A stretch of 63,050 nucleotides of DNA, counting the filler, from Pseudomonadota bacterium (GTDB lineage: Bacteria; Desulfobacterota; Desulfobacteria; Desulfobacterales; JBDRRP01), in the NCBI GenBank assembly GCA_043825735.1. It is 7 parts of 7 records of this genome, joined end to end, with 100 filler letters (N's around TTAATTAATTAA, not from the genome) between each part and the next. Parts side by side here need not be neighbours in the genome. Positions count along the whole stretch, not along the records: positions 20,005 to 35,087 come from JBDRRP010000109.1; 6 more parts are not named here. The stretch is one strand, 5' to 3'. The position numbers and the translations under genes were made by a program. Below the pieces are notes generated by a model that was given only the letters and a program-made list of their open reading frames with translations, was not told where the DNA came from and did no database searches. Position 1 is the first letter of the stretch; the number at the start of each line of letters is the position of its first letter. Of the stretch, positions 10,807-60,981 are shown piece after piece.

Positions 10807-10906
10807 NNNNNNNNNNNNNNNNNNNNNNNNNNNNNNNNNNNNNNNNNNNNTTAATTAATTAANNNNNNNNNNNNNNNNNNNNNNNNNNNNNNNNNNNNNN
10901 NNNNNN
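10807..10906. other. Artificial contig linker
   Basis: 100-nt N-TTAATTAATTAA-N spacer with stop codons in all frames. Confidence 0.99.
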
Positions 10907-19904: not shown

Positions 19905-20004
19905 NNNNNNNNNNNNNNNNNNNNNNNNNNNNNNNNNNNNNNNNNNNNTTAATTAATTAANNNNNNNNNNNNNNNNNNNNNNNNNNNNNNNNNNNNNNNN
20001 NNNN
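19905..20004. other. Artificial contig linker
   Basis: N-TTAATTAATTAA-N. Confidence 0.99.
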
Positions 20005-20163
<159 letters not shown>

Positions 20164-20230
20164 TCATAATCATAGGTCAACTAACGTGCGCCGCGCAGCC
20201 GCATGCCGCTCGCGGTCGCAACAGATATCC

Positions 20231-20701
20231 CTACCACCTGAAATGGGCGAATGCCTTGTTGGCCTCGGCCATCTTGTGCGTATCTTCACGCTTTTTTATG
20301 GTGCCACCGCGTTTGTTGGCGGCGTCCATGATCTCACCGGCAAGCTTTGCTGCCATCCCGTTTTCGGAACGGGTCCGCGCGAAATTGATGATCCAGCGAA
20401 TCCCCAGGGCGGTGCGCCGTGAAGGCCGAATCTCGGTAGGCACCTGATAGGTGGAGCCGCCGACACGCCGGGACTTAACTTCAATCGTCGGGCGCACATT
20501 CTCCATTGCCTGTTCGAAAACCTTGACTGGATCATCACTGGTGCGGTCGCTGATGATGTCAAAAGCCCCGTACATGATCCGCTCGGCGGTGCTTTTCTTA
20601 CCGTCGTGCATGATGGACTTAATAAATTTTGAAACAAGCTTGTTGCCGTATATGGCATCCGGAATGACTGGCCTGACTGGGACTTCTCTTCTTCTCGGCA
20701 T
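20231..20701 (-). CDS. rpsG: 30S ribosomal protein S7
   Basis: [17 protein letters not shown] and [13 protein letters not shown]. Confidence 0.98.
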
Positions 20702-20884
20702 ATCCTACACCATAACTTTCAATTGGATTCAAAAACCGGCGCCGCTCACTCTTTTTATTCTGTGCGCCGCATTGCCGTATATTATGGACCCGAAACCGGC
20801 TGCTGGGAATCCACCCTCCCCGGCCCACCGGCAGTGTCTATCTCTCAGTGTTGGCTTCGTACACGACAGCCATCTCACTGGTCT

Positions 20885-21256
20885 CTATTTCGGTCGCTTG
20901 GTTCCGTACTTGGAGCGACTCTGTTTCCGGCCGTCGACTCCGAGGGTGTCCAAGGTGCCGCGCACGATGTGGTACCTGACACCCGGCAAGTCTTTGACGC
21001 GACCGCCCCGGACAAGCACAACAGAGTGCTCCTGCAAATTATGCCCAATCCCGGGGATGTATGCGGTCACCTCGATGCCTGTGGTCAGCCTGACGCGGGC
21101 GACTTTTCGAAGCGCTGAGTTGGGTTTCTTAGGCGTTGACGTATAGACTCTCGTACACACACCGCGCTTTTGCGGAGCGCCTTTCAGCGCCGGTGTATTG
21201 GTCTTTTTATTGACCCGAGTTCTTCCCTTTCTGACCAGCTGGTTTATCGTCGGCAT
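20885..21256 (-). CDS. rpsL: 30S ribosomal protein S12
   Basis: [22 protein letters not shown] and [10 protein letters not shown]. Confidence 0.98.
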
Positions 21257-21394
21257 TGTATCCTCTTAATTCAAATATTTTCCTAATTCGGAGGCTCGAC
21301 AAAAGCAGTCTTGTATATATATGGATGCCGCCTGTCAAGCTATTTTTTCCCACTCATCCGCCCATTATGGTCCCGGGCGGCCCAGAATGGCGTA

Positions 21395-24300
21395 TTAGGC
21401 CACCTCGATTTCGACCTCCCGATATTCCCGGACTCCGGTGCCTGCCGGAATGATACGGCCCATGATGACATTTTCCTTCAGGCCCTTGAGAAAGTCCTTT
21501 CTGGCCTGAATCGCAGCGTCCGTCAGAACCTTAGTCGTCTCCTGGAACGACGCCGCTGAGATAAAGCTCTCAGTGCTCAGAGACGCCTTGGTGATTCCGA
21601 GAATGAGTGATTCAGCCAGTGCCGGACGGCCACCTTGCGCCAAAACAGCCTGATTGGTCTCCTCAAACCGTGATTTATCAACCTGTTCTTCATTGATAAA
21701 ATCGGTATCACCCGGTTCAAGGATTTTTACCATTCGCATCATCTGCCGAACGATGACCTCGATGTGTTTGTCATTGATACGGACCCCCTGCAGCCGGTAC
21801 ACCTCTTGAACCTCGTCGACGAGGTATTTGGCCAGAGCGATTTCGCCTTTGATATTGAGGATATCCTGCGGTATGGCGGAGCCGCCGATCAGCGGCTCGC
21901 CGGCTCTGATGTAATCGCCTTCGTAGACGTTGATGTGTTTGCCCCGCGGGATGAGGTATTCGCGCTTTTCACCCACATCGACCGGGGTTACCGTAATCCG
22001 TTGTTTGCCTTTTTTAGAGGCCTTGGCAATGGAAACATATCCGTCAATTTCACTAAGAATGGCCACTTCCTTGGGTTTTCGAACTTCAAAGAGTTCGGCT
22101 ACCCGCGGCAGACCGCCGGTGATATCTTTCGTCTTTGTTGTCGCCCGCGGCAATTTAGCCAGGATATCGCCGGCTTGCACCGTATCGCCTTCTTCGACCA
22201 TGATGATGGCATCGATCGGTAAAAAATACCGGGCCAGCCCGCCGCCACCGGGCAGTGTGGCTGTCTTTCCATCGACGTCCTTAATAGATATGCGAGGGCG
22301 TTCTTCACCACTCTTGGACTCCGAAATCGTCCGGCTTGACTTGCCGGTGACAGGGTCCACTTTCTCTATGACGGTTTTGCCAGGCAGAATGTCGCCAAAT
22401 TTGATGACGCCGCTGAGCTCAGTGATGATCGGCGTTGAAAAGGGGTCCCAGGACGCCAGCATATCACCAGCGTTCACATCTTGACCATCCTTTACCATGA
22501 GGTGGGCGCCATAGATGACAGGGTGCCGCTCGCGTTCACGTCCGGCATCGCTGACGATTGCAAATTCCCCCCCCCGCCGGTTCATGACCACCATGTCACC
22601 TTGGGCATTCACGACGACTTTCAGATCGACATACTTGATCTTTCCCTCGACACGGGATTTGATATCGGCCTGCTCAACGCGTCGGCTGGCGGTACCACCG
22701 ATGTGAAACGTCCGCATGGTCAACTGCGTACCCGGCTCGCCGATGGACTGTGCGGCGAGAATGCCTATAGACTGCCCCAGTTCGACAGTTGTGCCATGCG
22801 CGAGATCACGCCCATAACACTTGGCACAGATGCCGACCTGCGCGCGGCAGGTCAATGCTGATCGAATCGTCACATTGGTGATACCGGCGTCCTCGATCAA
22901 AGCGACATCACCTTCATCCAACTCGTGGCCTGCGGTAATGAGGACTTCATCGGTAAACGGATCGAGAATATCGTTGAGCGCCACGCGCCCGAGGACGCGC
23001 TCACCGAGGCGCTGAATCACTTCGCCGCCTTCGAGAAGCGGTTCGACCTCGATACCGACCATTGTGCCGCAATCGACTTCTGTCACGCTGCAATCCTGGG
23101 CCACATCGGCAAGTCGGCGTGTCAGATAACCGGAGTTAGCGGTCTTAAGGGCCGTGTCCGCAAGACCTTTTCGGGCACCATGTGTCGAAATAAAGTACTG
23201 AAGCACCGACAGGCCTTCCCGGAAATTAGCATGAATGGGTGTCTCGATAATTTCTCCTGAAGGCTTCGCCATAAGACCACGCATACCGGCCAGCTGGCGC
23301 ATTTGGTCCTTGCTGCCCCGGGCTCCCGAATCGGCCATCATATAGATGGGGTTCATGCTCTCGGTGATGATGGGCGCGCCGTCTTCACCCAAGACAGGGC
23401 TGCCGTCGGGGTACTTTGCCGTTGCAAACTTCATCACTTCCATCATCTCATTTGCAACGTCATCGGTCGCTTTCGCCCAGATATCGACGACTTTGTTGTA
23501 TTTCTCTCCGGGGGTGATAAGCCCCTCAGTATACTGCTTTTCAATTTCCTCAACGCGGCTTTCAGCCTGTTTGAGAATGTCCCATTTTGCAGATGGGATG
23601 ATCATAGCGTCGATCGATATGGACAGTCCGCCTTCGGTCGAATACCGGTACCCGATATCTTTGAGACGGTCAGAGAGTATTACTGTCGCTTTAGGCCCAA
23701 GGTTTCTGTATGCATAGTCAACGAGGTTCCTCAGAGACTTTTTGTCCATAACCCGGTTGATCATTTCGAATGGTATTTCCGGGCGCCGTTCAACAACCTC
23801 GAACAAGTGGAAATGGGTATCATCGGAAATGATCCCGCTGTGTTCTTTGGGATTCAGGCTAAAAACGATGTCGGCATCCTCGACATCTTTGCAGAAGATG
23901 CGTGCGAACTCGTCTTTCCGAAACAGCCCTACACCGCTGGTATTCCCTTTTTGATCATCACTGCATAGATCACCGACGATATCTTCAAACGCCGTCCCTT
24001 TCTTCATTGCGTCCAACGCCGCCAGCGCATCGACTTCACTGGACAACGTCATATACTGCAGGCGCATCAGATTGTCCTGGGGGATAATCTCCCATAGCAA
24101 AATTCGACCGACCGTCGAGTCACATCGTTCCTTGCTGATACGCACTTTTATCGTGGCATGCAGATCGATCATGCCGGCGTCATAGGCGATGCGAACTTCT
24201 TCAGGCCCCGAAAATGTCCTTCCTTCTCCACGCGCGCCGATTTTTTCGCGCGTCATGTAGTAAATGCCCAGAACGATATCTTGGCTGGGAACGATGATCG

Positions 24301-25792
24301 GGCTGCCATTGGCAGGCGATAAGATGTTGTTGCTCGATAGCATCAACACCCGTGCTTCAATCTGTGCTTCAACCGACAATGGCACGTGCACGGCCATCTG
24401 GTCACCGTCGAAGTCGGCATTGAACGCGGTACAAACAAGCGGGTGCAACTGGATCGCCTTGCCTTCAATCAAAATCGGTTCAAACGCCTGGATACCCAAT
24501 CGGTGCAGTGTGGGTGCGCGGTTTAGCATCACAGGATACTCTTTCACAACGTCATCAAGCGTATCCCAAACTTCAGGCACCTCACGCTCTACCATTTTCT
24601 TGGCGCTTTTGACGGTTGATACCAAGCCTTTTTCTTCCAGGCGATAGTAAACAAACGGCTTGAACAGTTCCAGCGCCATTTGTTTCGGCAGGCCGCATTG
24701 ATGCAATCTCAGATTCGGCCCTACAGTAATAACGGTACGCCCGGAGTAGTCGACGCGTTTTCCAAGCAGGTTCTGGCGGAACCGCCCCTGCTTTCCCTTG
24801 AGCGTATCACTGAGTGATTTGAGCGGACGCTTGTTGGTGCCGGTGATCACGCGACCATGTCGGCCATTATCGAAAAGGACATCCACCGATTCCTGAAGCA
24901 TCCGCTTTTCATTTCTGATGATGATATCCGGCGCGTTCAAATCGATCAGTCGCTTCAGACGGTTGTTTCTGTTGATCACTCTGCGGTAAAGGTCATTGAG
25001 GTCAGACGTGGCAAACCGCCCCCCCTCCAACGGGACCAGAGGGCGCAGGTCAGGCGGAAGTACCGGGATCACGTCCATGATCATCCAGGTCGGATCTACG
25101 CCGGATTTGCGGAATGCATCGACAATTTTGAGGCGCTTGGCCAATTTCTGACGTTTAGCCACCGAATTGGTCGCAAAAATATCTTCTCTGAGCTGGTTGT
25201 ATTCGGCATCCAGGTCAAGATTGCCCAGCATGGTCTTGACCGCTGCGGCGCCGATGCCCGCCTCAAATTTACTCCCATACGCTTCTACCGCTTCCCGATA
25301 TTTCTCTTCGGAAAGCAATTGGCCTCTGGCCAGCGGCGTTTCTTTGGGGTCTACGACAATATAACTGTCGAAGTAGAGTACTTTTTCAATGTTTTTGAGC
25401 GTCAAGTCGAGGAGGTTGCCAATTTTACTAGGCAGGCTCTTCAAAAACCAGATGTGCGCGCACGGCGTTGCCAACTCGATATGCGCCATCCGCTCTCTGC
25501 GCACCTTCGACTGAATGACTTCCACACCGCATTTTTCGCAAATGACCCCACGATGTTTCATCCGCTTATACTTGCCGCAATTACACTCGTAGTCCTTGGT
25601 CGGTCCAAAAATCTTTGCGCAAAACAGGCCGTCCCGTTCGGGTTTGAAAGTTCTGTAATTAATCGTCTCCGGCTTTTTGATTTCACCATGAGACCATTTC
25701 AGGATCTGCTCGGGGCTCGCCAGGGCGACCTGCACACCGATATAGCGACGCGGGTCAATCGGTTTCGCAAAAAAGTCGTATAGTGTTTCCAT
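21395..25792 (-). CDS. rpoC: RNA polymerase beta-prime subunit with a ~99-aa inserted domain
   Basis: NADFDGDQM active site, N-terminal zinc ribbon, [13 protein letters not shown]; extra segment at aa ~572-670. Confidence 0.98.
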
Positions 25793-25848
25793 GTGACCTT
25801 CCTGTACTCCGGAAAATGGTTAAGAATTGCTCCTGCTCGTTGGCGGCG

Positions 25849-28800
25849 TTAGATCTCTAGCAATGCCACATCCAGCCCCAGCGCCTGCAATTCTTTTGTA
25901 AGTACCTTGAAAGATTCGGGCAAACCTGGCTCCAGGGTATTCTGACCCTTGACAATCTTTTCGTACATGCGCGTACGGCCGGCCATATCATCCGACTTGA
26001 CGGTCAAAAACTCCTGCAGCGCGTGTGCTGCCCCATATGCCTCCATCGCCCATACCTCCATCTCTCCCAGCCGCTGACCACCGAACTGCGCTTTCCCTCC
26101 CAACGGCTGCTGTGTGACCAGAGAATACGGACCGATCGAACGGGCATGAATTTTATCGTCGACAAGGTGATGAAGCTTTAGCATATACATTGTACCGACG
26201 GTAATTTTCTCTTTGAAAGCCTCACCCGTGCGCCCGTCATAAAGTGTTGTCTGGCCGGTAGATTCAAGACCCGCCAACTCCAGCAATTCCTTGATCTCAA
26301 ATTCTTTCGCACCATCGAATACCGGCGTGGCCATGTGCACGCCGTTTCGGTATTGGGCCACAAACGCATCAATCTGTGCGTCATCAAAGCCAGCTATCAT
26401 TTGTTTGTTTTCATCATCGCCAAATACTTTTTTTAGCTGGTTTTTGAGTTCCTTGGTTTTATGCTCTTCGACGAGTTTGTTGAGCTGCGCGCCTAAGCCT
26501 TTTGCAGCTCGGCCGAGGTGGATTTCGAGCACCTGCCCAACGTTCATGCGAGAGGGGACGCCCAGGGGGTTGAGAACCATATCGACAGGTGTACCGTCGG
26601 CAAAATAGGGAAGATCCTCTTGCGGAAGGATACGCGAGACCACGCCTTTGTTTCCATGGCGTCCGGCCATCTTATCACCGACGGACAATTTTCGCTTCAT
26701 CGCGACGTACACTTTTACCATCTTGATGACACCCGGCGGCAAATCGTCTCCACGCTCAAATCGACTGGCCTGGTGTTCAAAAGTTTTCTCGCAGTGTTCA
26801 CAATGATTTCGGTAAACATCGATGAGGCCTTGCACCCGTTCTGCCATCTCGGGGTCGTCTACAGCGAGCCCCTCCAGCATCGCTACCGGTATCTCGGCCA
26901 AAGCTGAAACCTCGATTTTCGCCCCCTTGGCGATAAGCACCTTCTTGCCCTTTTTAATCGTGCTCCCCGATTGGCGGCCGTCCATCAACTCAGCGATGCG
27001 CTCTCTGGCCACATCAGCGATAATCGACAGCTCATCATCTCGGTTGCGCTCGAGAACGGCAATCTCAGTATCCTCGATTTCACGCGTCCGCTCATCTTTA
27101 TCGGTTCCGCGTCTTGAAAACACCTTGGCATCGATGACGATCCCCTGCACCCCTGGCGGCACACGAAGCGATGTGTCTTTTACATCGCCGGCCTTCTCGC
27201 CAAAAATAGCTCTGAGCAGTTTCTCCTCTGGAGAAAGCTGCGTTTCACCTTTGGGGGTAATTTTCCCGACAAGAATATCACCCGGGGTTACCTCAGCGCC
27301 AAGCCGAATAATTCCGCTTTCATCGAGGTTTTTCAACGCTTCTTCACCGACATTCGGAATATCGCGTGTAATATCTTCTTTCCCGAGTTTAGTGTCGCGA
27401 GCGACTACTTCAAACTCTTCTATATGGACAGAAGTATATACGCCTTCCCGGTGAAGCCGTTCGCCGACAAGGATCGAGTCTTCAAAATTGTAACCGCCCC
27501 ACGGCATAAAGGCGACAGTGACATTTTTCCCCAATGCCAGCTCGCCCTTATCGGTGGCCGGACCGTCGGCAATCACTTCTCCCGCCTCTACGAACTGGTT
27601 CTTCACAACGATTGGGCGGTGGTTAAAGCAGGTGTTCTGGTTGGAGCGGACGAACTTGGACAAATTGTAAACAGTGACCGGCTGGGCATCCCCATGGCCG
27701 CCCTCATGATGTTTCAAAACAATGCGGGAAGCGTCGACATCGATGATCACGCCTGCCTTTTCAGCCAAAATGGTTACGCCCGAGTCTTTAGCCACGACAC
27801 CTTCGATGCCGGTTCCGACCAACGGGGCCTCACTGGTAATCAGCGGAACGGCCTGCCGCTGCATGTTTGATCCCATTAGCGCGCGGTTGGCATCATCATT
27901 TTCGAGGAAAGGAATCAGTGATGCAGACACACTTACCAACTGGATGGGAGAGACGTCCATCAATTCGATATCGTCAGCGTGCGACATCATAAATTCGCCG
28001 GCAACGCGTGAAGTCACCAAGGCGTTGACGAAATGTTTCTTTGCATCCAAGGGCGCGTTCGCCTGTGCGATCGGATGAGATTTTTCTTCGAACCCACTGA
28101 GAAACCGGACCGTTTCGGAAACCGTGCTGTCTTTGACCACGCTATATGGGGTTTCAATGAAACCATATTCGTTCACACGCGCGTAAGTACTCAAGGAAAC
28201 GATCAGTCCGATATTGGGTCCTTCCGGCGTCTCGATTGGACAAATCCGTCCATAGTGGGAGGGATGCACATCGCGCACCTCAAAGCCGGCCCGCTCACGG
28301 GTCAGACCGCCCGGTCCCAGGGCACTCAGACGACGTTTGTGAGTCGTTTCAGAAAGCGGATTGGTCTGATCCATGAACTGGGATAACTGGCTGGTTCCAA
28401 AAAATTCCTTAACGACAGCCGATACCGGTTTGGGGTTGACCAGATCATGGGGCATCAGCGCGTCTACTTCCTGAAGACTCATCCGCTCCTTGATCGCCCG
28501 CTCCATCCGTACCAACCCGATTCGGTACTGGTTCTCTAAAAGCTCACCGACGGCCCGTACACGACGATTCCCGAGATGATCGATATCGTCTACGAGTCCT
28601 TGCGTATCCCGAAGTTCGATAAGTGTTTTGGCTGTGAGCAGAATATCTTCTTTTCGCAGAATTTTAAGATCGATGTCGGTTTCGATACCAAGACGCATGT
28701 TAATCTTGAGCCGACCGACGCCTGACAGATCGTAGTAAGCGCTTTTGAAAAACAGGTGATCGAGAAAATCTTGAGCGACCTCGGGCGTCGCGGGATTCCC

Positions 28801-29940
28801 GGGACGCAGGCGCCGATAGATATCGATGAGCGCGTCTTCTTTTGAAGTCACCTTATCCACCAGAAGTGTTTTCCGAACGGAATCGCTCGATGTAACAACA
28901 TCGACGGATAAGATACCGACCTCTTCGATGCCGGCCTTATTCATCATCTCAAGTTTTGCGTCATCAATTGTGTCATTGGCTTTAAGCAAAAGCTCCCCAG
29001 TTTTGGGGTGCATTACCGGTGTTGCCACCGTTTTCTCAATTAGATCTTCGAGATTGATGGGCACGCGGTACATCCCGAGCGATGTCATCCGTTTTAAGGC
29101 GCGGGCGGTAAACATGCGCCCTTTCTTAACCAATATTTCGCCATTCTCAGGATCCTTGACATCCTTAGTGGCGCGCTGTCCTTTCAGCGAGTCGACAGTG
29201 AAGCTCCGTTCTAACGTTTTCCCCTTCAAAAAAACCGTGTCAGTCAAATAGAAATAGGCGAGTAAATCCTCAATGGTGTACCCGAATGCCTTAAACAATG
29301 TAGTAATCGGGAATTTTCTGCGCCTGTCGATACGGATATAGACAACATCCTTTGGATCGATTTCCATATCGATCCAGGACCCCCGCACCGGAATGATGCG
29401 CGAGCTGTATATGACTTTGCCGCTGGAATGCGTCTTGCCCTTATCGTGATCGAAAAAGACGCCGGAAGAGCGGTGCAACTGGCTGACGACAACGCGCTCG
29501 GTCCCGTTGATAATAAACGTTCCCTTTTCAGTCATCAAAGGGATCGTTCCAAAGTAAATTTCCTGCTCTTTGATATCACGGATATTTGAGAAACCGCTTT
29601 CCTTGTCTACATCATAGACGACCAGCCGAACGGTGATGCGAACGGGGATCTCATAGGTCATCCCTCGATGAATACATTCCTGAACACTATGTTTCACTTC
29701 TGCAAACCGATATGAAACAAATTCGAGGCTAGCGCTCCCGGTGAAATCCTTAATGGGAAAAACAGACTTGAAGACAGCCTGCAGGCCGATGTCCTTCCGT
29801 CTTTCTGGAGGGACATCCATTTGAAGAAAACGTCTAAACGATTCTTTCTGGACACCGATGAGATCCGGAATTTCAACAATTTTCCGAATCTTACCGAAAT
29901 TTTTACGAATGCGTTTGCTCGCCAGAAGTCTCTCCGCCAT
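25849..29940 (-). CDS. rpoB: RNA polymerase beta subunit
   Basis: [24 protein letters not shown] and [12 protein letters not shown]. Confidence 0.98.
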
Positions 29941-30060
29941 GGATTCTCCGCTATTATTTTAAGTTTGTGTTAAGCGTGAAAGGTAAGCGCTTGACCGTGA
30001 AGAATATTTCAGTTCTTGCTGGTGCGTGAATGAGAGAAATGCGCTTTCTGAAAAACAGCG

Positions 30061-30095
30061 AAAATGGGACGGCGCAAAATGCGCCGGTCCCATTT
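30061..30095 (-). terminator. Intrinsic terminator/attenuator between rplL and rpoB
   Basis: Minus strand AAATGGGACCGGCGC-ATTTT-GCGCCGTCCCATTTT. Confidence 0.6.
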
Positions 30096-30138
30096 ACCGT
30101 ATAGGCTCACCAGCTGAAAAAAAACATGCAGAGCGGGG

Positions 30139-30522
30139 CTATTTCACTTCAACTTGTGCGCCGGCTTCTTCAAGCTGAGCTTTGATCTTTTCAGCCTCTT
30201 CCTTCGGAACACCCTCTTTTACGGGCTTCGGAGCCTCATCAACCAGCGCCTTGGCTTCTTTGAGTCCAAGACCCGTAATGGCTCTGACTTCCTTGATGAC
30301 CTGGATCTTCTTGTCTCCGCACGTAGTCAGAATGACATCAAACTCCGTCTGCTCTTCTGCGGCAGCGGCACCGGCATCAGCAGGACCAGCAGCCATCATT
30401 GCGACCGGAGCTGCTGCAGAAACGCCAAACTTTTCTTCAAGCTCTTTGATCATCTCAGAGAGTTCGAGAACGGTCATATTTGCGATAAACTCGATGACAT
30501 CGGCTTTGGTAATATCAGCCAT
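30139..30522 (-). CDS. rplL: 50S ribosomal protein L7/L12
   Basis: [20 protein letters not shown] and GLGLKEAK. Confidence 0.98.
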
Positions 30523-30585
30523 GGTATATTTCCTCCAAAAAAATTACGTTTAAAATGGTTCGATCTTTAGATGTTCGCCTTGTCT

Positions 30586-31107
30586 TTAGGCGGCTTCTTT
30601 TTGGTCTCTTATGGCCGCCAATACCCTGACAATGCTTGCCGGGATGGCATCGAGCGTCCTTACGAATGTTGTCGGGACAGCGTTCATTGCAGCCAACACC
30701 TGCGCAAGAAGCACTTCTCGGGATGGGAGAGAAGACAATGCTTTGATGCTCTCGACAGTGAGCACTTTCCCGTCCATGACGCCGATTTTTATTTCAAATT
30801 TTTGATTCTCTTTGGCAAAATCGGTAAGCACCTTGGCTGGTGCTACGGGGTCATTATAGCTGATTGCAATTGCACTGGGTCCTTTAAAATTGTCCTTGAT
30901 AAGGTCGGCATCAGTACCCGCTGCCGCCCTGACAAGAAGTGTATTCTTGACAACTTTAAATTCAACATCCGCCGCCCTGAGTTTTCGGCGCAGATCGTTG
31001 ATGGCGCTGACGTCAAGGCCTTTATAATCCGTGACGATGAGCACCTTCGATTTTGCAAACCGGCCCTTCAGGTCCTCTACGATCTCTTTTTTTTGAATCA
31101 AGTCCAC
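30586..31107 (-). CDS. rplJ: 50S ribosomal protein L10
   Basis: DYKGL, VVKNTL, LPSREVLLA; synteny. Confidence 0.97.
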   Translation of the reverse strand: MDLIQKKEIVEDLKGRFAKSKVLIVTDYKGLDVSAINDLRRKLRAADVEFKVVKNTLLVRAAAGTDADLIKDNFKGPSAIAISYNDPVAPAKVLTDFAKENQKFEIKIGVMDGKVLTVESIKALSSLPSREVLLAQVLAAMNAVPTTFVRTLDAIPASIVRVLAAIRDQKEAA

Positions 31108-31142
31108 GTTTTACACACACCTCCTTTCGCAACTGTAAAAAA

Positions 31143-31233
31143 CCGGAGGTATCCCCACTAAAAGGCTACCCCATCTCTGTAGGCCGGCTAAAAGCCGATT
31201 AAACACCTGCGTGAGCCTACGGTCTTTGACAGG
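31143..31233 (-). promoter_or_regulatory. Ribosomal protein L10 leader RNA
   Basis: Minus strand AAGACCGTAGG...TTAA...CCTACAGAGATGG in the rplA-rplJ spacer. Confidence 0.7.
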
Positions 31234-31307
31234 AATATAATCGCCATTATGGCGAATCTGGCCAAGTGCGGTCATCAACGATGAATCGCGCACAATGGCA
31301 CGTTTCA

Positions 31308-32015
31308 TCAGGCTTTGATCAGATCCTTGACAAAGGCGGTATCCACCTTGACGCCGGGTCCCATGGTGGATGAAACCGCGATCCCTTTCAGGTAAGTCCC
31401 TTTAGAGGCCGATGGTTTCAGCCGGACCAATGTCTCTAAAAATGCGGCCAGGTTCTGAATGATTTTATCAGGGCCGAAAGACACCTTTCCCATCGGGGCG
31501 TGAACGATACCGGCTTTTTCGACTCTGAAATCGATCTTTCCGGCCTTCAGTTCATTCACGGCCCTGGCAACGTCAAAAGTGACGGTTCCGGTCTTGGCGT
31601 TGGGCATCAACCCTCTGGGTCCGAGCAATCGGCCGATTTTGCCGACCGTGCCCATCATGTCGGGAGTTGCAACAGCCTTGTCGAAACCAAACCATCCCTC
31701 TTTGATTTTTTCAACCAGGTCGTCACCGCCGACATAATCAGCGCCAGCCGCTTTCGCCTCCGTCTCTTTTTCTCCTTTAGCGAAAACCAGCACTTTCACT
31801 TCCTTGCCCAAGCCATTTGGAAGGACCACCGTGCCGCGCACCATTTGGTCGGCGTGACGCGGATCAACTCCTAAACGGACAGCCACGTCGATGGTTTCGT
31901 CAAATTTGGCAAAGGAGGCGCCGATCACTTTGGTTATGGCCGACTCAAAATCGAACCGTTCCTGGCTTTCGACTTTCTCCCTGGATGCTGTGTATTTTTT
32001 ACCCCGCTTCGGCAT
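31308..32015 (-). CDS. rplA: 50S ribosomal protein L1
   Basis: KFDETID, DQMVRG and LGPRGLMPN. Confidence 0.98.
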
Positions 32016-32091
32016 CTTCTTTATACACTCCCTTGTCGTTGGCTGTTATGCGTAAGCATCAGTAGTTGTGGCCGCCGACGGTTTGTTCACG

Positions 32092-32514
32092 TCACGCGAT
32101 TTCAATCCCCATACTTCTCGCTGTACCGGCAATGATACGGGTAGCCGCCTCTAGGTCATTTGCATTCAGGTCGGGCATCTTCAACTGCGCGATCTCCTCA
32201 ACCTGTTTTTGCGTAACCTTTCCAACACGATCACGCTTAGGGTCACTGGCGCCCTTGGCGATCTTCGCCGCTTTTTTCAACAAAACGGCCGCTGGCGGTG
32301 TCTTTGTAATAAAAGTAAACGATCGATCCTGGTACACCGTAATGACTACCGGTATGATCATTCCCTCTTCATCAGCAGTTCGGGCGTTGAATGCTTTGCA
32401 AAAATCCATAATATTCACACCGTGCTGGCCCAATGCAGGACCGATCGGAGGTGAAGGATTTGCCTTGCCTGCCGTAACCTGCAACTTGATTTGTGCTAAG
32501 ACTTTTTTAGCCAT
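32092..32514 (-). CDS. rplK: 50S ribosomal protein L11
   Basis: [17 protein letters not shown] and GTARSMG. Confidence 0.98.
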
Positions 32515-32534
32515 TGTAATTTAGACTCCTGACT

Positions 32535-33065
32535 CTATAGCTTGGTCACCTGAACAAAATCGAGCTCTACCGGCGTGGCTCTACCAAAAATGCTGACAAG
32601 CACTCGAATTTTACCCTTTTCCGGGTTTACCTCTTCCACTGTCCCGTTGAAGTTGGCAAATGGTCCGTCAATAACACGGATCTCATCGCCGTTCTCAAAG
32701 AAGAACTTGGGCTGAGGCTTCAATTTACCCGCTTCCATACGATTGAGTATCTGGTTCGCCTCTTCGTCACTCAGCGGAGTTGGCTTTAACCGACCCCCGA
32801 GAAATCCGGTCACCTTCGCCGTGTCATTGACGATGTGCCATGTCTCATCGGTCAACTCCAAATTCACCAATATGTATCCGGGATAAAACTTCCTCGACGA
32901 CTCTCTACGCTTGCCTTTGACCAACTCGACGACCTGTTCGGTCGGAACCATGACTTCGCCGAATTTATCTGCCACCGTGGACGCAGCAATCCGCTCCTCA
33001 AGGGCAGATTTAACCTTGTTCTCAAACCCCGAATACACATGAACGATGTACCATTTGAGAGCCAC
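32535..33065 (-). CDS. nusG: Transcription termination/antitermination factor NusG
   Basis: WYIVHVYSGFE, YPGYIL, KOW domain (DGPFANF, IFGRATPVEL). Confidence 0.98.
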   Translation of the reverse strand: MALKWYIVHVYSGFENKVKSALEERIAASTVADKFGEVMVPTEQVVELVKGKRRESSRKFYPGYILVNLELTDETWHIVNDTAKVTGFLGGRLKPTPLSDEEANQILNRMEAGKLKPQPKFFFENGDEIRVIDGPFANFNGTVEEVNPEKGKIRVLVSIFGRATPVELDFVQVTKL

Positions 33066-33083
33066 TATTGGTATCTCCCGGAA

Positions 33084-33482
33084 TTATTGAAGAACAAGTT
33101 GGACCAATTTCGACAGCCCGATGTCGATAACCCCCAGAAAAAAAGAGATGATCAAAACCAGAACAATCACGACAAGGGTTGAACCGACGGTCTGTTTTCT
33201 CGAAGGCCAGGTTACCTTTTTCAGCTCGACCTTAACTTCTCGCAGAAATTGAAGGCTTTTGTCTAAAATATTCCTTTTTACCGGGCCAGCAACTGTTCTA
33301 ACCGGAGCGGATATCTTGCGGCTTGCGCCCACAGTCTTTCGCTTTGCTTCCTTGCCTGGCACGATCGTCAGGCTGGAAGCTGAATTATCAATTATTGACG
33401 CGTCCTGCGTTACCTCTGCGTCTGTTGCCTGCGGCACTTTTTTTTTCTGCACTGCCGGCTTTTTTTTCAGTAGGCGTCCCAT
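33084..33482 (-). CDS. secE: Preprotein translocase SecE with a long soluble N-terminal extension
   Basis: FLREVKVELKKVTWPSRK plus one TM helix; AGGAG RBS before ATG 33482. Confidence 0.93.
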   Translation of the reverse strand: MGRLLKKKPAVQKKKVPQATDAEVTQDASIIDNSASSLTIVPGKEAKRKTVGASRKISAPVRTVAGPVKRNILDKSLQFLREVKVELKKVTWPSRKQTVGSTLVVIVLVLIISFFLGVIDIGLSKLVQLVLQ

Positions 33483-33573
33483 TGTACTCCTAAAATGCTG
33501 AAAGCTCCGGATTGAAACCAATAAGCTCGCCAGCCCGTCGTTTCAACCCTGAGCTTCACCGCTTTATGGGGTG

Positions 33574-33650
33574 TGGCAGGCCAGGAGGGATTCGAACCCC
33601 CAACCCTCGGATTTGGAGTCCGATGCTCTACCAGTTCGAGCTACTGGCCT
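33574..33650 (-). tRNA. tRNA-Trp (CCA)
   Basis: AGGCCAG/CTGGCCT acceptor stem, CT-CCA-AA anticodon loop, GGTTCGAATCC T-loop, encoded CCA end. Confidence 0.96.
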
Positions 33651-33699
33651 GCGAACTCGCTTGGCCGGCACAGTCATCCATCGCACCGACCGGTTACAG

Positions 33700-33849
33700 C
33701 TACTTCGTCTCTTTATGCGAGGTATGTTTGCGGCAAAACCTGCAATATTTGTTGAACTCGAGCTTATCGGGCGTTGTCCGTTTATTTTTCGTAGTCGTGT
33801 AGTTGCGACTTTTACACTCTGTACACGTCAATGCGACAATTACTCTCAA
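33700..33849 (-). CDS. rpmG: 50S ribosomal protein L33 (zinc-binding form)
   Basis: Hand translation from [52 protein letters not shown]; below the ORF-track cutoff. Confidence 0.95.
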
Positions 33850-33878
33850 CGAGCGGCTCCTTTGTGCTGTAATGCTGG

Positions 33879-35072
33879 TTATTCGACGATATCACTCACG
33901 ACGCCGGCGCCGACCGTACGACCGCCTTCGCGGACGGCAAAGCGCAGCTCTTTTTCCATGGCAATCGGCGTGATCAACTCGGCCGTAATGGCCACGTTGT
34001 CCCCGGGCATCACCATCTCAACACCCTCGGGCAGCTCCAATATCCCCGTCACATCCGTTGTCCGAAAGTAAAACTGCGGCCGGTAGCCTGTGAAAAACGG
34101 CGTATGACGCCCGCCTTCCTCTTTGCTCAAAATGTAAACTTCTGCCTTGAACTTCGTATGCGGCGTGATCGATCCGGGCTTGGCAACCACCTGACCGCGC
34201 TCGACTTCATCGCGCTTGGTACCGCGCAGCAGCACGCCGATGTTGTCTCCCGCCTGGCCTTCATCAAGCAGTTTTCGAAACATCTCAACGCCCGTGCACA
34301 CCGTCTTGGTCGTCGGACGAATCCCCACGATCTCAACATCGTCGCCAACGTGAACGATCCCGCGATCCACACGACCGGTCACCACCGTCCCGCGCCCGGA
34401 AATGCTGAACACATCCTCAATGGGCATCAAAAACGGCTTATCAATATCGCGCTCGGGCTCAGGAAAATAACTGTCAAGGGCGGCCAACAATTCAAAAATG
34501 CACTTGGCCTCATCGCTGTCCGGATCGTCGCTCTCAAGCGCCTTCAGCGCGCTGCCCCGGATGATCGGCGTGTCGTCGCCCGGAAACTCGTACTTGTCCA
34601 ACAACTCGCGAAGCTCCAACTCCACCAACTCGATGAGCTCCTCATCGTCAACCATGTCAACCTTATTTAAAAACACCAGGATGCGCGGAACGCCCACCTG
34701 ACGCGCCAGCAATATATGCTCGCGCGTTTGGGGCATCGGACCGTCGTCGGCACCGACCACCAAAATCGCCCCGTCCATCTGAGCCGCGCCGGTGATCATG
34801 TTCTTGATGTAGTCCGCATGCCCCGGGCAGTCCACATGCGCGTAATGGCGGTTATCAGTCTGATACTCAACGTGGGCTGTGGCAATCGTTATGCCACGCT
34901 CTTTTTCCTCGGGCGCCTTATCGATCTGATCGAACGGTACGAATTCGGCGTTGCCCCGAAGGCCTGCATGCTTTGTGATCGCCGCCGTCAGCGTCGTCTT
35001 GCCATGGTCGATGTGACCGATCGTCCCTACGTTCACGTGGGGCTTGGTCCTCTGAAATTTTTCCTTCGCCAT
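33879..35072 (-). CDS. tuf: Elongation factor Tu
   Basis: [20 protein letters not shown] and [10 protein letters not shown]. Confidence 0.98.
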
Positions 35073-35087
35073 CTTACCGTCCTCCCA

Positions 35088-35187
35088 NNNNNNNNNNNNN
35101 NNNNNNNNNNNNNNNNNNNNNNNNNNNNNNNTTAATTAATTAANNNNNNNNNNNNNNNNNNNNNNNNNNNNNNNNNNNNNNNNNNNN
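35088..35187. other. Artificial contig linker
   Basis: N-TTAATTAATTAA-N. Confidence 0.99.
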
Positions 35188-48408: not shown

Positions 48409-48508
48409 NNNNNNNNNNNNNNNNNNNNNNNNNNNNNNNNNNNNNNNNNNNNTTAATTAATTAANNNNNNNNNNNNNNNNNNNNNNNNNNNNNNNNNNNN
48501 NNNNNNNN
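48409..48508. other. Artificial contig linker
   Basis: N-TTAATTAATTAA-N. Confidence 0.99.
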
Positions 48509-55849: not shown

Positions 55850-55949
55850 NNNNNNNNNNNNNNNNNNNNNNNNNNNNNNNNNNNNNNNNNNNNTTAATTA
55901 ATTAANNNNNNNNNNNNNNNNNNNNNNNNNNNNNNNNNNNNNNNNNNNN
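55850..55949. other. Artificial contig linker
   Basis: N-TTAATTAATTAA-N. Confidence 0.99.
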
Positions 55950-60881: not shown

Positions 60882-60981
60882 NNNNNNNNNNNNNNNNNNN
60901 NNNNNNNNNNNNNNNNNNNNNNNNNTTAATTAATTAANNNNNNNNNNNNNNNNNNNNNNNNNNNNNNNNNNNNNNNNNNNN
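60882..60981. other. Artificial contig linker
   Basis: N-TTAATTAATTAA-N. Confidence 0.99.

Follow-up and report, generated by a model that had tools for sequence, protein, structure and literature searches.

Residues 572–670 of the largest RNA polymerase subunit, β′ (RpoC), encoded in a genome of the Desulfobacterales, a large order of sulfate reducers, are confirmed here to be a parvulin (PpiC-type) domain, inserted in frame into a surface loop between conserved blocks of the host protein. The insert is carried by nearly all matched genomes of the order, evolves under purifying selection, and has been cleanly deleted in one genome. Most probably (we would put it at roughly 55%), it serves as a non-catalytic protein-binding module that tunes transcription, by analogy with two parvulin domains that lack activity, SurA P1 and that of PpiD.

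The insert, its fold and its site

The window, that is, the whole stretch of DNA analyzed (63,050 nucleotides), consists of contigs of one genome; paired runs of N at positions 10807–10906, 19905–20004, 35088–35187, 48409–48508, 55850–55949, and 60882–60981 are contig joins, and the genes outside positions 20005–35087 (clpA, secA, topA, ilvD, and those for acetolactate synthase, methylmalonyl-CoA mutase, and sdhA) are no true neighbors of rpoC. The rpoC gene itself lies on a single 15-kb contig in the ordinary cluster rplA–rplJ–rplL–rpoB–rpoC–rpsL–rpsG, with tuf further up (Table 1). An antisense ORF of 308 aa on the plus strand, at window positions 24857–25783 over the 5′ part of rpoC, is probably a shadow frame due to codon bias.

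Table 1. Features of the rpoC region of the window (positions count along the whole window).
Feature	Position	Strand	Remarks
Parvulin (PpiC-type) fold domain in RpoC, aa 572–670	23783..24079	minus	Translation, Pfam, orthologue profile, AlphaFold model, structure searches
rpoC host gene, 1465 aa	21395..25792	minus	Intact; all five Rpb1 Pfam domains; genome has one rpoC match
N-terminal host flank, aa 488–571	24080..24331	minus	Final residue aligned to proteobacterial β′ Pro584
C-terminal host flank, aa 671–800	23393..23782	minus	Residue 8 = position 3 of cyanobacterial RpoC2 model
Insert residue 9	24053..24055	minus	Tyr here; first tetrad His position; His in 91/121 family members
Insert residue 41	23957..23959	minus	Asp here; catalytic Asp/Cys position; Asp in only 7/121, mostly Ser/Gly/Ala
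Insert residues 54–62, family-specific helix with pocket Phe58 and Phe62	23894..23920	minus	Consensus R-K-D-E-F-x-R-x-F; then 6-residue insertion
Insert residues 86–93	23801..23824	minus	Thr/Ser tetrad position (Asp here), second His (91), family-specific Phe93 (119/121)
rpoB	25849..29940	minus	Upstream of rpoC; without Rotamase match

The 99 extra residues reported by the original prediction are the exact, in-frame translation of the minus strand, starting from residue 572 of the RpoC ORF; the first of them is Gln and the last, Arg. The base composition of the insert (GC 0.505, GC3 0.61) is like that of the remaining rpoC (0.532 and 0.62, respectively). In sequencing run X1, which may be the source sample rather than an independent one, a single contig spans positions 23000–24410 with zero differences, and the RNA runs cover small shares of the window only, X3 having a 216-base piece about 81% alike within the insert.

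Taken singly, the insert matches three Pfam families at E-values up to 10, all of them Rotamase models and all below the cut-off, the best being Rotamase_2 (E 0.0039; 18.4 bits, under the 27-bit curated cut-off), and it matches NmPin at E 0.055. The family as a whole gives a much stronger signal: 25 out of 30 orthologous inserts match Rotamase at E ≤ 0.01 (best value 3.8e-13), and a profile made from the alignment of 30 orthologous inserts matches PrsA of B. subtilis at 1.7e-15, followed by NmPin, SurA, PpiC, Par14, and Pin1. The AlphaFold model of the insert (pLDDT 87.5) has the four-stranded sheet and four helices of the parvulin fold, superimposable on solved parvulins, and one extra helix. 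Foldseek with this model yields parvulins at probability 1.00 and TM about 0.7, while an independent search, covering 48,161 chains, matches PrsA with Z 11.7 and rmsd 2.4 Å over 91 residues; the top 21 rows of the latter search are all of parvulin type, the third being SurA P1 with a bound peptide (2pv1, Z 10.8), and FKBP folds come next at Z ≤ 5.3. ESM Atlas features of the insert point to Rotamase clusters only (top 0.95). Given the Rotamase matches of the orthologues, the profile match to PrsA, and the model, the likeness to parvulins goes beyond chance; the residue-by-residue correspondences on which it had originally been proposed hold, and the profile and structure checks suggested at that time both came out in its favor.

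The β′ structures solved for proteobacteria have the two flanks directly joined near residues 584–586 (584/585 in E. coli), as had been claimed for E. coli; the NCBIfam RpoC model passes from position 562 to position 565 across the site, and 20 out of 20 measured outgroup loci from other orders of the phylum have 0–4 aa there. In a 313-aa model of host plus insert, the host part matches residues 490–722 of E. coli β′ with Z 20, the rmsd being about 11 Å over the whole fragment. The insert is a lineage-specific RNA polymerase insertion, being an in-frame domain of more than 50 aa between shared regions of a host whose fold stays intact. The loop that holds it presumably faces outward from the pore domain, with the alpha subunits to one side and the rim of the secondary channel to the other, at a distance from the DNA channel.

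Residue 5 of the C-terminal flank corresponds to position 8 of a second cyanobacterial RpoC2 model; judging by the flank matches to the starts of the RpoC2 models, only a few residues lie between the end of the insert and the cyanobacterial β′ split, the end of RpoC1 being not pinned, as its match stopped at 558 of 619. The split has been located in a surface loop whose local fold is unchanged (10.1101/2022.10.06.511230) and placed before region E (PMC10895346). The insertion loop, at or next to the split, is shown to be permissive and to accept a 99-residue domain. Unlike the cyanobacterial and plastid rpoC1/rpoC2 arrangement, the loop in the Desulfobacterales holds an inserted domain within one chain, and the site common to both shows permissiveness, not common origin.

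Distribution, inheritance and loss

All 151 genomes searched in the class belong to the same order, and 143 of the 147 matched ones carry the insert, as judged by match spans; the non-carriers are the genome G059 and three genomes of family f51, in which the insert is missing from ten out of ten genomes. Among 41 relatives, 38 were matched and 36 are carriers (one with frameshifts), the genomes G009 and G022 being without the insert. The comparison of RpoC across the Desulfobacterota, called for by the original prediction, yields no insert-spanning match in the other orders of the phylum (243 genomes, 235 matched), where all matches are flank-only at E ≥ 5e-21, compared to E ≤ 9e-37 for intact carriers. 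The best 80 loci are mostly Desulfobacterales or deltaproteobacterial records. Beyond the phylum, where sampling is indirect, the 120 listed out of 147 full-length matches are all RpoC and at least 84.9% identical in the N-terminal core. Databases thus already show this architecture, most RpoC records among these 120 bearing an automatic Rotamase label. In a library of 1.84 billion sequences, the best single-domain matches are fragments of RpoC, and the others are multi-parvulin, chaperone-like proteins.

Several individual records deserve separate mention. Because of the insert, the source of one partial RpoC (P0227) mislabels it "peptidylprolyl isomerase." The locus L101, titled "Nitrospinaceae," has the insert and an rpoC core 97% identical to deltaproteobacterial records, and is probably misnamed or misbinned. 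In family f46, some inserts reach 125 aa through roughly 26 additional residues that separate helices one and two, a secondary insertion within the insertion; the length was measured in G143 (L061, G143:C97:1000–6500) and is probably shared by G084 and G051. The genome G010, a single contig of 2.5 Mb with 60% completeness, contains another rpoC-like region that is divergent and lacks the insert (L065, G010:C1:45000–51000; 66% and 54% identity); the bin may be chimeric, or a second polymerase may be encoded. In G003 (L053, G003:C12), frameshifts interrupt the insert, and in G160 (L060, G160:C288), the conserved Glu codon immediately preceding the insert reads TAG; the gene being essential, both are probably errors of assembly.

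The tree of the RpoC core was built with the insert removed and comprises 73 out of 90 loci, after exclusion of duplicates, broken rows, and near-copies; in it, all 47 carriers and five non-carriers form one clade of 52 rows with SH-aLRT 99, and G009 falls outside. In the domain tree (104 columns), 15 sampled inserts are monophyletic against 49 free domains (SH-aLRT 96), the sister group of the inserts being not resolved, so that no donor family emerges. On the sampling described above, the insertion is confined to a clade and inherited vertically.

The clean loss is that in G059 (L056, G059:C14:21500–26500), where 93 codons have been removed in frame and four residues of the start and two of the end of the insert remain, eight out of nine genomes of the genus being carriers; comparison with two congeners shows no obvious direct repeat at the junctions. 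The trees also nest family f51 and G022 among the carriers, as if there had been three independent losses, yet the AU test permits their placement outside the carriers (p 0.447), and thus only the loss in G059 is firm. Transfer of the domain to a free gene was considered for three non-carriers and rejected, since their best matches to the A1 profile (E 2e-10 to 2e-9) are at the level of ordinary parvulins, true inserts yielding E 1e-32 and 1e-39. A presence trade-off with GreA, DksA, or omega was rejected as well, all three being encoded in five out of five genomes checked (two carriers and three non-carriers). In the same five genomes, rpoZ is immediately preceded by greA, which has the same orientation (G000:C108:21193–21876 and matching places in G025, G059, G088, and G161).

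The dN/dS ratio is 0.19 for the insert and 0.09 for the flanks (Nei–Gojobori, 32 disjoint close pairs), and the mean pairwise identity is 39% for the insert and 67% and 77% for the flanks. Out of 121 distinct copies, obtained from 141 full-length, stop-free segments of loci L001–L170, 93 are exactly 99 residues long. The insert is therefore under purifying selection yet dispensable, the latter following from the clean deletion in one genome and from the family without the insert.

Active site, pocket and family-specific residues

The catalytic tetrad of parvulins is C/D-H-H-T/S, and the NmPin mutants D42A and S82A keep 0.7 and 3.5% of activity, respectively (PMC4922055). By alignment to NmPin, the tetrad corresponds to insert residues 41, 9, 91, and 86, which in the window copy are Asp, Tyr, His, and Asp, that is, not the set of an active parvulin prolyl isomerase. 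Among the 121 inserts, His9 is found in 91, His91 in 101, Thr or Ser86 in 45, and Asp or Cys41 in seven; both histidines are present in 84 and neither in 13, and all four positions agree in one, that of locus L110. The picture holds when each coded family contributes a single row (Asp41 in four out of 38). As a control, we considered 172 free domains in the same columns (score of at least 30 bits, reaching position 92), of which 123 have Asp or Cys, 130 have Thr or Ser, and 67 have the full tetrad; many of these domains also lack it, and hence sequence is an imperfect predictor of activity. The family has mostly lost the outer Asp/Cys of the tetrad, and often the Thr/Ser, the window copy being among the few with Asp at position 41; within the limit just given, the insert is probably non-catalytic, as originally suggested. 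The accompanying claim that the first His is replaced and the second kept describes the window copy correctly and does not extend to the family, where both are usually there and the Asp/Cys is gone instead.

The proline pocket of Pin1 is formed by L122, M130, and F134 (PMC6468809). The corresponding insert positions, mapped by alignment columns rather than by coordinates, are jointly L/I/V50, F/L/M58, and F/Y62 in 101 out of 121 copies, so that, on this mapping, a hydrophobic proline pocket is retained. The equivalent of the Met is Phe, situated in the new helix, and the following six-residue insertion remodels the loop. Conservation specific to the family, compared to free domains, is observed for E57 (92% vs. 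14%), F58 (86% vs. 9%), R60 (81% vs. 9%), F93 (98% vs. 23%), and D43 (70% vs. 1%); these residues, D68, the helix at about 54–62, and the six-residue insertion make up the family signature. The median net charge is −6 for inserts and −2 for free domains.

The insert shares with the domains of PrsA, PpiC (Par10), NmPin, and Par14 (PF00639, PF13145, PF13616) the fold (Z 9–12), the order of motifs, the Gly/Phe/Ser core, the hydrophobic pocket and, usually, both histidines, and differs from them in mostly lacking the catalytic Asp/Cys, in the Phe for Met within a new helix followed by the extra six residues, and in being acidic. Unlike free parvulins or those of periplasmic chaperones, it is cytoplasmic and embedded in RNA polymerase.

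Possible role of the insert

According to the reading we prefer, a parvulin domain from a gene for a prolyl isomerase of the PrsA/SurA/PpiC type would have entered the β′ surface loop (584/585 in E. coli numbering) by a single in-frame insertion near the root of the Desulfobacterales and been inherited vertically afterwards. The domain would have lost efficient isomerase chemistry along with the outer Asp/Cys but retained its fold, its hydrophobic pocket for proline or peptides and, in most copies, the two histidines, and it would have gained a conserved helix of its own (54–62) and Phe93. Tethered to the outer face of the polymerase, the domain would contact a protein, either a neighboring subunit or a transcription factor, a nucleic-acid ligand being unlikely because the domain is acidic; since it can be lost, it would tune transcription rather than enable it. 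Parvulin domains without activity are known from SurA (P1), PpiD, and TbPar42 (PMC4922055, PMC6468809, PMC2956729), and these, like the insert, have the parvulin fold without the full catalytic set inside a larger protein; they belong to chaperones, however, and the inactivity and peptide binding of the insert are predictions. Some observations speak against such a module. The family-specific residues may serve core packing of the extra helix and not a binding surface, the faster change of the insert relative to the flanks equally fits a passenger held by folding only, and G059 and all ten f51 genomes do without it. As for the absence of catalysis, the acid at position 43, found in 96 out of 121 inserts, could replace the lost Asp.

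The insert could instead be a tolerated passenger, which landed in a loop where anything goes, was fixed early, and persists only because exact deletions seldom arise and a copy that misfolds would damage a subunit the cell cannot do without. The permissive loop, at or beside which cyanobacterial β′ is cut with no change in the local fold, agrees with this, and so do the clean in-frame loss from a genus otherwise made up of carriers, the ten f51 genomes, and the presence of GreA, DksA, and omega in carriers and non-carriers alike. The pTM of the 313-aa model is only 0.55, too low to tell how the domain is oriented, though the fragment has other floppy parts. A mere passenger would hardly be expected to persist in 143 out of 147 matched genomes from dozens of families, to keep both histidines in most copies, and to acquire new conserved positions, among them the charged E57, R60, D43, and D68, not needed by free parvulins. 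We regard this explanation as unlikely, although worth keeping in mind.

An active, rewired prolyl isomerase, in which the two histidines, the pocket, and the shifted Asp43 catalyze and the target proline belongs to RNA polymerase or a bound factor, so that the domain acts as a switch or a folding aid, seems distinctly less probable. It would account for the co-occurrence of an acid at position 43 with His9 and His91 in 73 out of 121 inserts, for the near-restriction of Asp43 to the inserts, for the retained pocket hydrophobics, and for the tendency of acids to alternate (position 43 only in 92 copies, 41 only in six, both in four, neither in 19). It does not easily accommodate the single complete tetrad, the replacement of His9 in whole lineages, including that of the window, the 13 copies with neither histidine, or the Phe for Met and remodeled loop, and besides the insert the genome encodes five parvulin proteins, a small PpiC-like one among them.

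Still more doubtful is a structural brace or a cis-acting assembly aid, which would pack on the adjoining surface of the polymerase and stabilize the core, as proposed for epsilon of Bacillus. The insertion site is, we assume, near the alpha subunits. The strongly conserved length and the fair confidence of both linkers in the contiguous model (block pLDDT 78–89) are consistent with a brace, and epsilon and the Thermus inserts have been proposed to be stabilizers near alpha/β′ (PMC7749167); the presence of omega in carriers and the pTM of the same model argue against it. Lastly, an artefact, an intein, or a mobile element, to which the sub-threshold Pfam match of the single sequence might point, has a negligible chance: the site is identical in 143 genomes, which also disposes of the misassembly the original prediction had allowed for, the codon GC is like that of the host gene, the Pfam matches up to E 10 are to Rotamase models and to no intein or mobile-element family, and an insert with a Gln start, an Arg end, and the parvulin fold is no intein.

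The folds described for β′ insertions are HABAS/SBHM (SI3, or β′i6, of E. coli, β′i2 of Thermus, Si3 of cyanobacteria), BEAN, and sLC (Opalka, 2010, PMC2939025; Alvarez-Carreno, 2024, PMC11515920). Like them, the insert folds as a domain about 100 aa long, interrupts a surface loop in frame with conserved blocks on either side, follows the species tree, and is dispensable in some lineages. Its fold, unlike theirs, comes from a family of protein-folding enzymes, and its identification as a parvulin by both sequence and structure rules out membership in any of the three. Sections 2.1 and 2.4 and Table S4 of PMC11515920 name only HABAS, BEAN, and sLC among β′ insertions; the words parvulin, rotamase, and isomerase are absent from its main text, as are parvulin, PPIase, and rotamase from its spreadsheet, and the 16 unique architectures of Table S4 include no Desulfobacterales. 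We found no description of a parvulin insert in β′ among the titles and opening abstract lines listed by literature searches, although Lane and Darst (2010; β′i1–i7) or Iyer (2004) may list the insert without its fold; an order-wide parvulin insert in β′ is apparently undescribed.

For the Desulfobacterales, the insert is a near-diagnostic marker. The β′ insertions described so far represent a few recurring folds, mostly without an assigned function; as the chemistry and ligand pocket of parvulins are well understood, the function of this one is directly testable by standard PPIase and peptide-binding assays, for which nature provides controls in a whole family without the insert and in the one genome of a carrier genus that has cleanly deleted it. 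A bolder and rather improbable variant, based on the pocket, the two histidines, and the shifted Asp43, is that the domain acts as a proline-reading head on the RNA polymerase of the Desulfobacterales, binding and maybe isomerizing an X-Pro motif that belongs either to a transcription factor or to a polymerase subunit. If true, these bacteria would have, covalently built into the polymerase itself, an equivalent of the way in which Ess1/Pin1 controls RNA polymerase II.
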